This document shows, one piece after another, positions 32,369-61,665 of a DNA stretch of 64,000 bases (position 1 is its first letter; each line of letters begins with the position of its first letter). The translations under genes were made by a program, and so were the position numbers. The DNA comes from an uncultured bacterium. Its GTDB lineage: Bacteria > Patescibacteriota > Minisyncoccia > UBA6257 > 2-01-FULL-56-20. The stretch lies in NCBI GenBank assembly GCA_963719425.1, contig OY970382.1:7888-71887 (forward strand), in the 5' to 3' direction. Below the pieces are notes generated by a model, which saw nothing but the letters and a program-made list of their open reading frames with translations, was not told the DNA's origin and searched no databases.

Positions 32369-39109
<6,741 letters not shown>

Positions 39110-54082: not shown

Positions 54083-56110
54083 ATGCCAGATATCGTTCCG
54101 CCGCCGCGCAAAGACGAGGAAATTCGTCCCAGCGACCTTGTGAAAGTTATCAAACAGGAACCTAAAGACGAGGCGTTGGAGAAAGAAAGTCTGCTGCCCC
54201 GCAGGCCTCGCCTCCCCAAAGGTATCGTATGGGGGATTGCGGGGCTTGTCGTGCTTTTTGTTGGCGGCTCAATTGTTTCTTTTTACCTCATCCGCGCCAA
54301 GGTGGCCTCTTCGTTTTCCACAAGCCTTGGGACGCTTCGCTTGGGAGTGGAAGATCTTCAAAATTTTGATCCCCAGTCTGCCGCACAGAAATTTTCTTCT
54401 TTGCGGGATCTTCCCTCGGGCAATCTTGGCGCCGCAGTGAAAACATTCGGGTCTCTTTTGGGGGGAGGAGGCGGCGCCATCACGTCGCTCGTCAATCTTT
54501 CCAATCAGCTCACGCTTTTTGCGCAAGAGGTGAGCGACGTGGCGTCAAGCTCGTACGGGTTTTTTACGACCGGTGAGGGAGGGCCTTTCGTTGCTGACCT
54601 TGGCCGTATACGCGATACGTTAGGTACGATTGATGCCGCAAGCGATCAACTAACGGGCACGGCATCGTTGTTCGGAGGGCTTTCCTCGTTCGGGGGCAAC
54701 GATTTTTATCTTTCGCTCAAGACGCAGGTTGAGAGTGCAAAGAACGCGCTGGACGTTCTTTTGCCTTGGCTCTCCGATCCGCGTCCCCATCATTTCCTTG
54801 TGCTTTTGGAAAATCCTTCGGAGATGCGTCCCGCGGGAGGATTTCTTGGAAGCTATGCGGATGTTACGATTGCGAGCGGCACCATAACCGACATCGCCGT
54901 TCATGATATTGCGGACGTTGACGCGGCATTCAATCGCAACATTATTCCTCCGAAGCCGCTGCAGCTTGAGGTGACAAGATGGCGGCCGGCAGATGCGAAC
55001 TGGTTTTTTGATTTCCCCACCTCTGCCTCAAAAACCATCGCTTTTTTTGAGGGATCGGCCCTTTACGCAAATACTTCCACGACGTTTGATGGCGCCGTTG
55101 CGATCTCGCCGAAGGTGATCGGGGATCTCTTGGCCGTCACGGGTCCGATTGTGACCGGGAAACCGACGACGACCTTCACGGCGGATAATTTCCTCATTCA
55201 GGTTCAAAAGATCGTTCAAAGCGGTCAGTCGTCGTCCGCCACCTATCCCAAGCAGGTCATCGGCGATCTTTCAAAAGCGATTTTCGCAGCGCTTGCTTCT
55301 TCAACTGCGGATGGGCACGATGCCTTGTTCGCTGCGGCGCTTGATTGGATAACAAAGAAAGACGTGATGGTGTATTTCAAAGATCCGGCGATGGAAGCCG
55401 TTGCGGACGCGAACGGCGCTTCGGGTGCGGTGTATGCACTGCCACAGAAATTCAACGGCGATTACCTTGCGGTCGTGGATGCAAACATAAACGGTGGGAA
55501 ATCGGACTTATATGTTTCAAGCACGGTCACCTATACTGCGCAAATCAATCCGGACGGCACGATGACAGGACACCTTGTCGTAACGCGGAAGCACAACGGT
55601 GTGAAAAGCCCGTATTCATGGTACCGGGCGACGAACCAGGATTACGTGCAGATTTTCGTTCCTGAGGGCACGACGCTCGCGAATGTTTCCGGCACCGTTT
55701 TGAAGAAAATTACGCCGCCGATCAACTACGCAAAAAAGGGGTACGAAGCCGATCCCACCGTTTCTACGATTGAATCAACGGAGCAGACTCTCTTTGCGTA
55801 TCCGGGCGTCGCGTGGCACGAGGAGTCCGGGAAGAAAGTGTTTACGACGTGGTCCGTCGTGAAGGCAGGGGCTTCCACGCAGTTCTCACTTGACTACGCG
55901 CACTCTTTGCCCCTTCCTCCCGCGGAGGGCGTGGCATACCAGTTTGTTTTTGAAAAACAGGCGGGCACGCATAGATCGTATGAGTATGATGTTGACGCGC
56001 CGCTTGGCTATGTCTTTGTTGAAAACGGCGGCCTTGCGACGTATTCGTATCAGTCCGGCGATCCGCCCGGGCGGCTCATCTTCAATTTGACGTTGCAGAA
56101 ACTTCAATAG
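54083..56110 (+). CDS. Membrane-anchored DUF4012-like protein
   Basis: N-terminal TM; motif LLENPSEMRPAGGFLGSYADVTI resembling the DUF4012 RxTGGF signature (from memory, not searched). Confidence 0.5.
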   Translation: MPDIVPPPRKDEEIRPSDLVKVIKQEPKDEALEKESLLPRRPRLPKGIVWGIAGLVVLFVGGSIVSFYLIRAKVASSFSTSLGTLRLGVEDLQNFDPQSAAQKFSSLRDLPSGNLGAAVKTFGSLLGGGGGAITSLVNLSNQLTLFAQEVSDVASSSYGFFTTGEGGPFVADLGRIRDTLGTIDAASDQLTGTASLFGGLSSFGGNDFYLSLKTQVESAKNALDVLLPWLSDPRPHHFLVLLENPSEMRPAGGFLGSYADVTIASGTITDIAVHDIADVDAAFNRNIIPPKPLQLEVTRWRPADANWFFDFPTSASKTIAFFEGSALYANTSTTFDGAVAISPKVIGDLLAVTGPIVTGKPTTTFTADNFLIQVQKIVQSGQSSSATYPKQVIGDLSKAIFAALASSTADGHDALFAAALDWITKKDVMVYFKDPAMEAVADANGASGAVYALPQKFNGDYLAVVDANINGGKSDLYVSSTVTYTAQINPDGTMTGHLVVTRKHNGVKSPYSWYRATNQDYVQIFVPEGTTLANVSGTVLKKITPPINYAKKGYEADPTVSTIESTEQTLFAYPGVAWHEESGKKVFTTWSVVKAGASTQFSLDYAHSLPLPPAEGVAYQFVFEKQAGTHRSYEYDVDAPLGYVFVENGGLATYSYQSGDPPGRLIFNLTLQKLQ

Positions 56111-58994: not shown

Positions 58995-59024
58995 GCGTTC
59001 GCGATGGTACAATGCTTACGTCGC

Positions 59025-59095
59025 GGGTGTAGTACAGTGGCAGTACGGTAGCTTCCCAAGCTATAGACGAGGGTTCGATTCCCTTCACCCGCTCC
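59025..59095 (+). tRNA. tRNA-Gly (CCC)
   Basis: Acceptor GCGGGTG/CACCCGC; anticodon loop TTCCCAA; U73; T-loop TTCGATT; CCA not encoded. Confidence 0.75.
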
Positions 59096-59132
59096 GGCGA
59101 CTGAGCGATGTTAGAATCTGTCTGGTGTGGGA

Positions 59133-60809
59133 TTAGACTACCTCTGCCTGATAGCACTGCTCGCAGTAGACGATTTCGGGTCTCTCCGGCGCAAAGTTTG
59201 TTTTGACATCTTTTCCGCACCGACTGCACCGACGACCATAGAGGGTAAACGGTCCCCGTTTCTTGATTCTCGCCATATGACGGCAGTTGAAACATTTTCG
59301 TGGTATTGGGATAAAAAGCCGCTTATAGAGGAGTAGCTCCTGCGGAATGATGCGGTAGTTTCTACCACACTCCGCACACGCAAAAACTTCTTTGGTGATA
59401 GATTCGGAAACATCACGGATATGGTCCGGGATTTTTTCGAGTAGCATAGTCTCCTTTCCCTTTGTCGTTTGCACATCGTCCTGCCACCCAAGTCCCTGTG
59501 CGAGCGTTTCTTCTTTAGTCATAGGTAAATTGTCTTGCCCGATCGTTTCGTTATAGGCGAAGAGACCAACCTGCGGAGGCAACGGGAGGCCATAGCCATT
59601 CTTTTCTTTTAACTCTTTAATAATGTGTTCTCTGATGCGCTTATATTCCGTCTCTGGATATTTCTTGTTTAGTACGCAAAATTCTGCATTTTTGAGCCCG
59701 TCGCAACCGATGCAGTTATTGCATGTATTTAGTCCGAGTGAGTAGTCAATATCGTGACTAGCAGAGATGAGGGCAGATCCAATAACGCGATTGGAATATC
59801 CTACCGCCGCATCGGCGAGCAACAATTCGCTGTTGAATCCATATCCGGTGGTATCGTAGGAACCCTTCGTATTTTTGTTGAAAAAGGCATATTTGCAATC
59901 TTCGCAGTTCGCATCCTCAAATGAATACTTCACGTTTTTTGATTCGGTAAGATAATCGCCGATGCAGTTGACCGATTTCAAATTCTGATTCTCGCGCTGC
60001 GGAAATTGTAGCGCGAATTGCTCAAAGCGCCGCTCAGCTTCTTTCATCTTGGAGTAACTTCCCAAGATCCCATGTACCCTCCTTTCGTATTCTTCCTTGG
60101 AAAGTTGTTCGTTGAAGAAGCGGTATTTTTGATTGCGTAAATTCATACACCCGAAGCAATAGGTGCACCCGCTACAGTTCGCAATATAGGCGCAGTCAAT
60201 GTTTCCGCTTATGTTTTGCCCGTGATACACGCGCGAGGAATGATGGCCGTTGATGCATTCGTAGCAATCCTCCAAAAACGTTGCGTAGTAGAGGTCCGAA
60301 ACATATTTGCAATGCCGCATACCGCGAGAGTAGAGCACCTCTTCTCCTTCGCCGGAGTTAAAGACGAGGTAGCAGTTTTTTTCATATGGCCCGGCGTAAT
60401 TGATGTACTCGCTGTTTACGTTAGTGGGGCTGTGGGTGATGTAGAGGGCTTGCTTCGGAGTTTTTCTGAAAAGTTCTCCGAGCTGCTCAAAGAATGGCTT
60501 TTTGAGATCGAAATCGACGTTGAATGAGAATCGGTCCCAGTTGTCTGAATCAAAGCACTTCGTGCAGTAAGCCGTATATGGTGATCGGGGGTTATACGCG
60601 GAAACGATGGTTTTCCCGCATAGGCCGCATTTGGAGTTGTATAAAGTACGTTCGTTGCGATAGAGCGCTCGCCATTTGAAGCGACAGTTCGGACAGATGC
60701 TTGGAGGTTGAGCCCCCATCTTCTTGTAAAAATCAAAATCTTCCGGTTCAATCGTGAACTGGTTTTTGCAATTCCGGCATGCCCGCGTTTCTTGCTCCAT
60801 TACTCTCAT
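59133..60809 (-). CDS. Large cysteine-rich protein with zinc-ribbon-like modules at both termini and internal C-x2-C repeats
   Basis: N-terminus CRNCKNQF..FYKK..CPNCR...CGLCGK...CTKCF and C-terminus CAECGRNY..LYKR..CFNCR...CSRCGK...CEQCY are internal repeats; the central region has >20 additional Cys, mostly in C-x2-C spacing. Confidence 0.6.
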   Translation of the reverse strand: MRVMEQETRACRNCKNQFTIEPEDFDFYKKMGAQPPSICPNCRFKWRALYRNERTLYNSKCGLCGKTIVSAYNPRSPYTAYCTKCFDSDNWDRFSFNVDFDLKKPFFEQLGELFRKTPKQALYITHSPTNVNSEYINYAGPYEKNCYLVFNSGEGEEVLYSRGMRHCKYVSDLYYATFLEDCYECINGHHSSRVYHGQNISGNIDCAYIANCSGCTYCFGCMNLRNQKYRFFNEQLSKEEYERRVHGILGSYSKMKEAERRFEQFALQFPQRENQNLKSVNCIGDYLTESKNVKYSFEDANCEDCKYAFFNKNTKGSYDTTGYGFNSELLLADAAVGYSNRVIGSALISASHDIDYSLGLNTCNNCIGCDGLKNAEFCVLNKKYPETEYKRIREHIIKELKEKNGYGLPLPPQVGLFAYNETIGQDNLPMTKEETLAQGLGWQDDVQTTKGKETMLLEKIPDHIRDVSESITKEVFACAECGRNYRIIPQELLLYKRLFIPIPRKCFNCRHMARIKKRGPFTLYGRRCSRCGKDVKTNFAPERPEIVYCEQCYQAEVV

Positions 60810-60894
60810 TCTATCAGAACGAGAAAGGCTACACGTCTCTCGGTCTGTCCGATACTAAAAACGGTTGTTCCGCGCCCCGCTCCAGCAGTCGTTG

Positions 60895-61665
60895 CTACTC
60901 CTTCTTCTTGAACAAGCTCACTACGAAAAGCGCGGCAGCCGTGACGACGATCGTGGGTCCTTGGTCAAGGCCGTACTGGGCGGAGATGTAAAATCCGATG
61001 AGCATTGCGGTGATGGAAAGCGCCATGGAGGTCAGAAGGAACATGCCGAGCGAATGGGTAAACTGGCGTGCGGCGGAGGCGGGAATGATGATGAGGGAGC
61101 CCACAAGCAGTGCGCCGAGGAAGCGCAGCGAAACGAGGATGGCAAGGCCGAAGATGAGCAAGAACCAAAGATTCACGGTATTCACGTTGATGCCGGCGGA
61201 GGCGGCGAGCTCCGGGGAAAAGAGGGCGATGATCAGTTTATTGCGCAGCACCCAGAGCGTCCCGATGACGATTATGCTCACTGCCATCCCGAAGATAAAT
61301 CCGCCAGTCGTGAGATTTCCGAATCCACCAAAGAGCGCGTCCACAAGGTCTTCGGTGGAATGGATAAGAAGCGCGCCGAGCGCAACGGAGGAAGCGAAAA
61401 TGACGCCGATCGCGGCCTCAGCGGAAAGTTCGGTGGATTTTTGAAGATGCCAGATAAGGAGGATGCCTATGAGGAGCGTGAGGCCGCCGCCCGCGAGCGG
61501 ATTGATTTTCCAGACGATGGCAAGGCCGAGACCGGGAATTGCGATGTGCGACATCACGTCGCCCGCGAGGATTGTCCGCTTCATCAGTGCGAAGGCGCCG
61601 ACGAGGCCTGCGGCTGCTGCAGCAAAAATGGCGAGCGTGACGGAGTAGATATCAGTGAGGGTCAT
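60895..61665 (-). CDS. ABC transporter permease, ABC-3 (Zn/Mn ZnuB/MntB-like)
   Basis: 8-TM ABC-3 architecture. Start at MTLTDIYSV. Confidence 0.7.
   Translation of the reverse strand: MTLTDIYSVTLAIFAAAAAGLVGAFALMKRTILAGDVMSHIAIPGLGLAIVWKINPLAGGGLTLLIGILLIWHLQKSTELSAEAAIGVIFASSVALGALLIHSTEDLVDALFGGFGNLTTGGFIFGMAVSIIVIGTLWVLRNKLIIALFSPELAASAGINVNTVNLWFLLIFGLAILVSLRFLGALLVGSLIIIPASAARQFTHSLGMFLLTSMALSITAMLIGFYISAQYGLDQGPTIVVTAAALFVVSLFKKKE

Follow-up and report, generated by a model that had tools for sequence, protein, structure and literature searches.

A Patescibacteria-restricted family of cysteine-rich proteins with paired zinc-ribbon modules, and its operon-level linkage to coupling-protein-like ATPases

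What is the role of a protein with 32 cysteines, fewer than 600 residues and no named family, in a bacterium with a very small genome? The question is raised by a gene close to one end of the window analyzed here (a 64-kb stretch of contig OY970382.1, assembly GCA_963719425.1, from an uncultured bacterium of the class Minisyncoccia, Patescibacteriota). A sequence-only reading of this window had described zinc-ribbon modules at both ends of the protein and a cysteine-rich center between them, and had proposed metal binding or storage, a redox function or a nucleic-acid-binding scaffold, pointing to a neighboring metal ABC transporter. What that reading observed is largely right, but its functional interpretation (metal, redox, transporter context) is not. 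As shown below, the gene belongs to a real, large, uniform and lineage-restricted family with a new architecture (known zinc-ribbon domains combined with an unmodelled central domain), and this family is reciprocally linked, at the operon level, to two coupling-protein-like ATPases within an Hsp70 operon.

The open reading frame (ORF) of 558 residues, which starts with ATG, is not an artefact, since it has more than 1,500 homologues. In a 90%-clustered database there were 1,573 matches at E<=1e-3, and the top 120 homologues are 528-575 residues long (nearly all 553-569) and 51-91% identical to the query. When 1.84 billion representatives of 50% clusters were searched exhaustively with a profile, 4,916 matched at E<=1e-3, 3,474 at <=1e-10 and 2,051 at <=1e-30; among the top 150, nearly every match has 540-600 residues. 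The phylogenetic distribution, which the sequence-only reading had wished to see checked, is that of a large, uniform-length family restricted to the Patescibacteria: all informatively named sources fall in this phylum, mainly in Parcubacteria/Paceibacteria lineages (Nomura-, Jorgensen-, Lipton-, Staskawicz-, Azam-, Ryan- and Sungbacteria, and Minisyncoccia), while a few labels of metagenome-assembled genomes are generic or doubtful and one "Burkholderiales" label is probably wrong. Searches of phage, plasmid and IMG/VR collections were essentially empty, except for one zinc-ribbon-only match and one fragment, and a mobile-element origin was rejected on these grounds. No description of the family was found in the literature on PF13451, PF23477 and TIGR04272, on zinc-ribbon paralogues of the candidate phyla radiation, or on Patescibacteria dnaK and coupling proteins. 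Family members are either core-type copies, of which there is never more than one per locus (n = 45, 47-55% identical to the query, itself core-type), or paralogues with 28-41% identity. The parts of the window protein, all encoded on the minus strand, are the following:

59133-60809, minus strand: ORF of the core-type family member, ATG start, 558 residues, stop codon included
60684-60779, minus strand: zinc unit 1, type A (CxxC-x24-CxxC), C11, C14, C39 and C42, cysteines 99-100% conserved
60555-60629, minus strand: zinc unit 2, type B (CxxC-x17-CxxC), C61, C64, C82 and C85, cysteines conserved in at least 95% of core-type copies
60006-60455, minus strand: central half 1, residues 119-268, with a period-3 repeat (solenoid-like) stretch, the Cys-loop C212-C215-C218-C221, a conserved motif and a helical hairpin
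59598-60005, minus strand: central half 2, residues 269-404, with a repeat (solenoid-like) stretch, the Cys-loop C363-C366-C369, C378, the same motif and a helix
59400-59597, minus strand: acidic connector, residues 405-470, net charge -6, with Y419-N420-E421, G439 and W442 invariant and a predicted local distance difference test (pLDDT) score of 90-97
59283-59378, minus strand: zinc unit 3, type A (CxxC-x24-CxxC), C478, C481, C506 and C509, in the strongly basic region 471-520
59154-59228, minus strand: zinc unit 4, type B (CxxC-x17-CxxC), C528, C531, C549 and C552, the best PF23477/TIGR04272 match

The true product is probably 555 residues long and begins at Met4 (ATG at 60800), because homologues begin with MxxETxxC and a GAGAG lies 3 nt upstream of this codon; the orthologue with 91% identity (P0001, locus L005) starts at the equivalent of Met4. 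The cysteines are distributed as eight at each end and 16 in the center (the sequence-only reading had overcounted the latter, at more than 20), and they form 15 CxxC motifs, against 1.8±1.3 expected from composition, a number that none of 20,000 shuffles reached; the center alone has seven, against 0.6 expected. The target has no hydrophobic or transmembrane segment and no signal peptide (the maximum of a 19-residue Kyte-Doolittle window is 1.09). Its charge is polarized, residues 471-520 carrying +9 (family median +6) as opposed to the acidic connector, and the whole protein has a family median net charge of -3, with both center and connector acidic.

Each end of the protein is formed by one type A and one type B unit. 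The two modules (residues 4-89 and 470-556) align over 86 ungapped residues with 31% identity (BLASTP E=1e-17), which confirms that they are internal duplicates. They had been called mirrored, with a uniform spacing of 19 residues between the cysteine knuckles; the word fits the layout only, as the order is A-B, half 1, half 2, A-B, and the spacing is in fact 24 residues in units 1 and 3 and 17 in units 2 and 4. The 16 terminal cysteines are each at least 95% conserved in 121 close homologues, the set from which all conservation percentages given here are taken. In a broader set of 205 members, which includes diverged paralogues, all four cysteines are present in 203 members for unit 1, 140 for unit 2, 184 for unit 3 and 201 for unit 4, and the degenerate units (unit 2 in about a third of the paralogues) lose three or four ligands jointly; because of this joint loss, the terminal units behave as true metal sites. 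Downstream of unit 1 there is a basic helix, followed by the invariant R51-N52-E53 ... Y57.

The statement that the protein matches no family holds for its center but not for its ends. Units 2 and 4 belong to PF23477 (zf_Tbcl_2), which is matched by 41/45 homologues (best E=4e-9) and, marginally, by the target itself (27.5 bits against a gathering cut-off of 27, best stretch 527-555), while residues 61-85 and 528-552 have exactly 17 residues between the knuckles, as in the CxxC-x17-CxxC domain; the NCBIfam cut-off for TIGR04272 is missed by the target (22.2 bits against 36). In units 1 and 3, 23/45 homologues match PF13451 (zf_Tbcl, a probable treble-clef domain; best E=7.8e-7), with no match of the query itself at E<=10. 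The CxxC-x17-CxxC domain binds zinc, as determined by inductively coupled plasma mass spectrometry, in small proteins of Methanosarcina mazei (PMC12704099). Given this binding and the joint loss of the terminal ligands, zinc rather than an iron-sulfur (Fe-S) cluster is the expected metal, and we read the ends as four structural Zn(Cys)4 sites, with zinc occupancy predicted by homology. The Fe-S or radical-SAM maturase that the sequence-only reading had named as a possible refutation did not appear: there is no such match in Pfam or NCBIfam, and no CxxxCxxC spacing among the cysteine positions. One homologue, P0258 (731 residues, E=2.7e-146), has the second cysteine of every terminal knuckle replaced (C-x-x-S/E/T), so that all four zinc sites are degenerate and yet the scaffold is kept; the approximately 150 residues that precede it look GNAT-like by eye.

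The center is itself duplicated (E=4e-7), a feature that had been missed. Its two halves share the motif L-[KR]-N-x2-Y-x3-N...EY and contain conserved pairs of residues approximately 147-151 positions apart (K144/K291, E156/E303, D172/D319, C218/C369, N233/N381 and Y241/Y389), and the connector that follows is the best conserved stretch of the core-type copies (column conservation 0.76). Only five central cysteines are well conserved in the 121 homologues (C146 91%, C218 100%, C221 96%, C366 95% and C369 99%); at the remaining central positions cysteine is found in 22-69% of the sequences, alternating with Ser, Gly or Ala. An obligatory central Cys4 metal site formed by C218, C221, C366 and C369 was considered and rejected, since among the 205 members C366 is replaced alone by the hydrophobic Leu, Val, Ile or Met, with C218 and C369 unchanged. 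Hydrophobicity and the fraction of Cys, Ser, Gly and Ala have a period-3 autocorrelation, positive at all multiples of 3 up to 27 and otherwise negative, whose maxima in half 1 are at lags 12 and 15 (r = 0.47-0.59), lags 12, 15 and 18 being preferred in the center. Because of the single replacements by Ser, Gly, Ala, Leu or Val and of this period-3 ladder, the central cysteines are, as judged from sequence, packing residues in a ladder of small residues lining the core, and not metal or redox sites.

An AlphaFold2 model built from the 121-sequence alignment is a confident single body (pLDDT 87.5, predicted template-modeling score 0.90), with lower values in the Cys-loops (64-78). The isolated center is modeled less well (69.3 and 0.58, respectively), and for this reason the zinc modules appear to be integral to the fold. 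Foldseek searches of the PDB (full and center-only models) and of BFVD (full model) gave no match at E<1e-3; the best E value was 3e-3, with template-modeling (TM) scores <=0.14, and every weak match was to a beta-solenoid: the full model retrieved LpxA and GlmU, the center PfbA, Qnr, pectate-lyase-like proteins and tailspikes. At the sequence level, no model in Pfam, NCBIfam, PHROGs or PADLOC and no PDB sequence matches the center, and the full protein has no significant PDB structure match. The Pfam search and AlphaFold model suggested by the sequence-only reading have thus returned the terminal zinc ribbons only, together with a confident model that has no significant structural match. We call the center "solenoid-like", a weakly supported description with which we assign it to no known class.

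What, then, accompanies these genes? In 81 non-redundant loci anchored on the family (each at most 21.7 kb), the commonest non-family neighbour is a P-loop ATPase, matching TrwB_AAD_bind, T4SS-DNA_transf, TraG-D_C and DUF87 in Pfam, as well as TraD, the VirD4-like CD1115 family and CedD in NCBIfam (all far below the curated cut-offs). These matches identify it as a VirD4/TraD-like, divergent member of the FtsK-HerA superfamily, in which an N-terminal membrane anchor is not evident. There are 50 such ATPase genes in 31/81 loci, all on the strand of the family genes and with a median gap of 94 bp, and the linkage is found in 17 of the 34 groups obtained by clustering core copies at 70% identity. 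Per 100 kb of non-family DNA there are 5.4 of them, whereas about two per genome (PMC12102498) would give an expectation of ~0.2-0.33.

The ATPases are of two size classes, mutually 43-46% identical: a short one (~490 residues) and a long one (630-830 residues). The long ATPase adds a CxxC-x17-CxxC domain (PF23477 E=8e-11; TIGR04272 43.8 bits, against a cut-off of 36) and a tail made of a Pro/Lys/Glu-rich linker and a conserved terminal peptide (…IPEDVLKKIL). In four of the long ATPases (L016 7911-9998, L023 1958-4438, L036 7735-10011 and L056 16131-18431) the low-complexity linker has 150-300 residues; the consensus of the terminal peptide, [KE]-[EV]-[IV]-P-E-D-V-L-[KR]-[KR]-[IV]-L, is weakly similar to E-x-IP-D-H-I-[KR]-D-V in the connector of the family, and the peptide looks like a tethered docking motif.

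Two layouts recur. One of them reads rpsI – grpE – (paralogues) – paaX-like (opposite strand) – dnaK – long ATPase – core copy – (paralogues) – short ATPase – dnaJ – TM197, and in eight loci the long ATPase gene ends 2-5 bp ahead of the core copy. The other, without dnaK and dnaJ, reads TM453 – c13 – short ATPase – array – cutA – core copy – array. The association also holds in the reverse direction, in 80 metagenome loci (L085-L164) anchored on the ATPase domain and containing the 80 best-matching short ATPases, which were chosen as the closest relatives. A family gene is present in 59/80 of these loci, in 32/36 of those with at least 3 kb on both sides and in 26/27 of those with at least 6 kb on both sides, with a median ATPase–family gap of 122 bp and always on the same strand (59/59). 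Of the 80 loci, 58 carry dnaJ, which comes after the short ATPase in 57 (median +61 bp, 55/57 within 400 bp), and dnaK lies upstream in 21/21 (median -4.3 kb), while the zinc-ribbon segment of the long ATPase is upstream in 38/44, with a median of -2.3 kb, a distance that corresponds to one family gene plus the ATPase tail.

Further genes recur at these loci. The membrane proteins TM453, c13 and TM197 (L034 1604-2965, L067 26-565 and L051 8907-9500, and their equivalents) are matched by no Pfam or NCBIfam model; in the second layout the short ATPase is preceded by TM453 and c13, whereas TM197, which comes after dnaJ in the first, is found in 33/80 metagenome loci, always downstream. These three proteins may be membrane parts of the module. 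A divergently oriented PaaX-like regulator (PF20803) stands beside dnaK, where hrcA would be expected, in L016, L026, L031, L036 and L038, and cutA recurs inside arrays. The short ATPases of L085-L164, which come from many samples, are 77-92% identical to the query ATPase, above the identity of the core zinc-ribbon protein (~50-55%).

Family genes also accumulate in tandem. Two or more are present in 51/81 loci, with up to 12 per locus, and copies within a locus are always co-directional. In JALLOO010000001.1 (positions 1-32413, the overlapping loci L071 and L006), 18 back-to-back family genes on one strand occupy ~95% of 32.4 kb, broken only by a single gene for an AAA_14/DUF4143 ATPase. Variation among paralogues is greatest in the two solenoid-like stretches (mean column conservation 0.40), compared with 0.54-0.64 in the zinc units, the Cys-loops and the second helix.

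Based on these observations, we tentatively favor, as plausible rather than probable, a role for the family as a pseudo-symmetric adaptor, or client, of a pair of soluble VirD4/TraD-like ATPases of the FtsK-HerA superfamily. The target is a core-type protein, predicted to be soluble and cytoplasmic, with two double zinc-ribbon modules around a duplicated solenoid-like center. We propose that the zinc-ribbon modules at its two ends bind the paralogous ATPases, one each, or else a ligand that those ATPases handle; the long ATPase carries the same CxxC-x17-CxxC domain as the ends of the family. The variable solenoid surfaces of the tandem paralogues could then supply different specificities, in line with the concentration of paralogue variation in these stretches. 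We infer in this way physical contact with the ATPases, the adaptor or client role and the nature of any cargo. Several observations weigh against this explanation. The coupling-protein linkage exists at the family level, and neither in the window, where no VirD4/TraD-like ATPase, dnaK or dnaJ (nor any family paralogue) is found within the 64 kb, nor at the locus of the 91% orthologue, which has no ATPase, dnaK or dnaJ within 10 kb. The 80 ATPase-anchored loci are close relatives (77-92% identity) with mostly one layout, so that their phylogenetic independence is limited. A single family copy is present in 31/81 loci, and the core copy is housekeeping-like (different lineages share ~50-55% identity), a pattern more in keeping with a fixed partner than with an adaptor that diversifies. 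The solenoid assignment comes from weak Foldseek matches (TM <=0.14) and sequence periodicity, and the embedding between dnaK and dnaJ could indicate a different function, in proteostasis.

Other explanations of the same data have to be considered. The family could instead be cargo of the VirD4-like ATPases, exported (possibly via Patescibacteria's type IV secretion system, T4SS) into or onto hosts, with the arrays as an effector repertoire. The Bartonella virD4-bep locus, in which tandemly duplicated effectors lie beside virD4, is an analogue, as the family too has diverged co-directional tandem arrays beside coupling-protein homologues. VirB2 pilins are tandemly diversified in this same phylum; in addition, the central surfaces vary while the termini are conserved, and zinc unit 3 is basic. 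Most type IV coupling protein (T4CP) homologues of Patescibacteria lie far from virB4, relaxases are rare, and a role outside conjugation is suspected (PMC12102498). We nevertheless consider export unlikely. The C-terminus is a folded Cys4 unit (pLDDT 85-93) with a net charge of +1 (family median -1), and not the unstructured positive tail of a T4SS substrate; four tightly folded zinc sites would impede unfolding-dependent export; the ATPases have no N-terminal transmembrane anchors; and no T4SS channel gene was recognized among the recurrent neighbors, although no search was aimed at virB4. Moreover, the high conservation of the core copy is atypical of effectors, and in the epibiotic growth of Ca. 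Southlakia the T4CP is dispensable but the T4SS essential. The position of the module might point to a different partner, the Hsp70 machinery: the long ATPase, core protein and short ATPase would be part of proteostasis, the ring ATPases helping DnaK/DnaJ as unfoldases or disaggregases while the zinc-ribbon protein serves as co-factor or substrate selector. The module lies between dnaK (~4.3 kb upstream of the short ATPase) and dnaJ (a median of 61 bp after it), on the same strand, with grpE and further paralogues upstream. The chances of this explanation seem slim to us, given that the second layout, the pure arrays and solitary copies such as that of the window have no dnaK and dnaJ, that the ATPases resemble DNA- or substrate-coupling proteins (TraD, VirD4, CedD) and not Clp/Hsp100, that a chaperone co-factor would not readily account for ten or more paralogues, and that insertion in the operon may reflect mere co-expression.

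The scaffold role named by the sequence-only reading remains viable in the form of a free-standing DNA- or RNA-binding protein that uses its four zinc ribbons and the basic unit 3 and has no obligatory link to the ATPases, even though the informative context (the ATPase pair and the dnaK-dnaJ operon) lies outside the window. Zinc-ribbon and treble-clef units commonly bind nucleic acid. The net charge of +9 in residues 471-520, the existence of solitary copies and the occasional neighbors of the Pif1 helicase, rpoC-dnaG-rpoD and thyA/DHFR type agree with such a role, and DNA could be a shared ligand, since DNA translocases such as CedD are among the relatives of the ATPases. Yet the family is slightly negative overall (its center and connector being acidic), no known DNA- or RNA-binding domain model matches, and these varied nucleic-acid contexts do not recur whereas the ATPase link does, all of which leaves it improbable. 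An anti-phage or conflict system, in which the arrays and HerA/FtsK-type ATPases would act together and the paralogues serve as diversified sensors, is in our opinion very unlikely: the ATPases do match PADLOC mad8 (E=4e-15) and HerA, tandem diversification is typical of conflict systems and one array holds the AAA_14/DUF4143 ATPase, but the target itself has no PADLOC match, the recurrent neighborhood yielded no effector domain such as a nuclease or toxin, the core copy and the short ATPase (77-92% identity) are very conserved, unlike defense genes, and the family sits in a housekeeping operon and is nearly absent from phage, plasmid and viral collections. Least credible, and by now largely refuted, is the original suggestion of a metal-binding, storage or redox protein tied to the adjacent transporter. 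It had in its favor the 32 cysteines, the recurrence of CutA1 near family genes and the arrangement in the window, where an ABC-3 permease and an ABC ATPase are encoded on the same strand upstream of the gene, at a distance of 85 bp and with no terminator-like site in between. None of the 83 related loci, however, has this permease, and the 91% orthologue lies elsewhere; only the 16 terminal cysteines act as ligand sets, the central ones being poorly conserved (22-69%), singly replaced and arranged in a period-3 ladder; P0258 keeps the scaffold without the second cysteine of the terminal knuckles; and there is no radical-SAM, Fe-S or thioredoxin-like match.

The adaptor or client of the ATPase pair is our preferred explanation. 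A broader and more doubtful extension of it, which we regard as unlikely in its entirety, would make the family and the two orphan ATPases a hitherto unrecognized ATP-driven machine of Paceibacteria, co-expressed with Hsp70, in which the core copy is a fixed adaptor and the arrays (up to ~30 kb in a genome of typically <1 Mb) are diversified cargo or effectors for episymbiotic host interaction.

Within the window, the immediate surroundings of the gene are correctly described in the sequence-only reading as to position, but they are not a conserved context. The metal ABC genes (an ABC-3 family permease and an ABC ATPase) are directly upstream, and the other features are:

59023-59095, convergent with the target gene and 37 bp downstream of it: tRNA-Gly(CCC)
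32369-39109, plus strand: ORF of 2,246 residues with a TTG start
54083-56110, plus strand: DUF4012 protein of 675 residues, upstream of lepA

The remaining neighborhood is housekeeping (LepA, a DivIC-like protein and a protein-L-isoaspartate methyltransferase). The locus of the 91% orthologue (L005, from Minisyncoccia SPRUCE 501) shares with the window the target gene only (L005 9948-11687 and window 59129-60872, 87.7% DNA identity over 1,745 bp), no neighboring gene of either locus being found in the other; either the two genomes are heavily rearranged, or the gene moves or is conserved independently of its surroundings. A link to the ABC-3 transporter or to the tRNA-Gly was rejected, as the permease is found in 0/83 loci and the 91% orthologue has different neighbors, and the proximity of both is coincidental. 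The region 59100-60900 is a trough in G+C (GC) content, the gene having 46.7% compared with 53.6% for the window and 54-59% for the flanks; the orthologue in L005 is likewise low (48.3% against 53.4%), and the median of the other family loci is 38.9%. Such a trough could come from the conserved sequence being rich in Asn, Lys, Tyr and Phe, or from acquisition from a low-GC relative.

The ATPases give these findings their wider interest. In 2,918 Patescibacteria genomes surveyed in 2025, 5,713 VirD4-like T4CP homologues have been reported; virB4 is close by in only 148 cases, and relaxases are rare. Quiñonero-Coronel et al. considered that these T4CPs were possibly exapted for another function, and their article makes no mention of zinc-ribbon or cysteine-rich neighbors (PMC12102498). 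The genomic context of the family is a previously undescribed lead on these orphan coupling-protein ATPases, and the family is a first candidate, testable genetic partner for them. Its arrays occupy a notable share of very small genomes and, if the partnership is true, it would offer a route to what uncultivated episymbionts move or assemble with these motors. The new domain architecture and the unmodelled central domain are in themselves worth a family model and a structure.

The protein can be compared with several known systems. The DnaJ zinc finger (four CxxCxGxG motifs, PF00684) is also a cysteine-rich zinc module in a DnaK operon, and the central loops of the target hold C-x2-C-x-G-C; however, the cysteines of this central motif are not conserved as a ligand set, and PF00684 matches neither the target nor the 45 homologues, while the neighboring DnaJ matches it with E=1.8e-14. 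A metallothionein-like pattern does not apply either, the central cysteines not being conserved as ligands. With beta-solenoids (LpxA, GlmU, Qnr, antifreeze proteins) the center shares small Cys, Ser, Gly or Ala residues at fixed core positions, but its period is 3 and not 5 or 6, and no acyltransferase-type catalytic residues are evident. Hexapeptide repeats (LpxA/LpxD/GlmU) gave no Pfam match in the target or the 45 homologues (Foldseek E=6e-3, probability <=0.10, TM <=0.10), nor did pentapeptide repeats (Qnr/MfpA) match in Pfam (EfsQnr E=4e-3, TM 0.10). The narrow, cysteine-rich beta-helices of insect antifreeze proteins have coils of 12 or 15 residues; their core is stabilized by disulfides, which is unlikely in a cytoplasmic protein such as the target.

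The ends are closest to the CxxC-x17-CxxC proteins (TIGR04272, PF23477; A00184/A01980 of M. mazei), with the same x17 spacing in units 2 and 4, and to PF13451, which about half of the homologues match in units 1 and 3. The known CxxC-x17-CxxC proteins are small, with a single or multiple domains and no known function, whereas the target has four units at the ends of 555 residues, around a duplicated center. In contrast with Bartonella-type T4SS substrates, the family has no BID-like domain or disordered basic C-terminal signal, and the neighboring ATPases differ from VirD4/TraD in being soluble, in falling far below the model cut-offs and in forming a long/short pair. The family as a whole, though not the locus in the window, resembles VirD4/TraD coupling proteins and their substrates in its organization, being likewise encoded on the same strand as the ATPases, reciprocally linked to them and present as tandem diverged paralogues.

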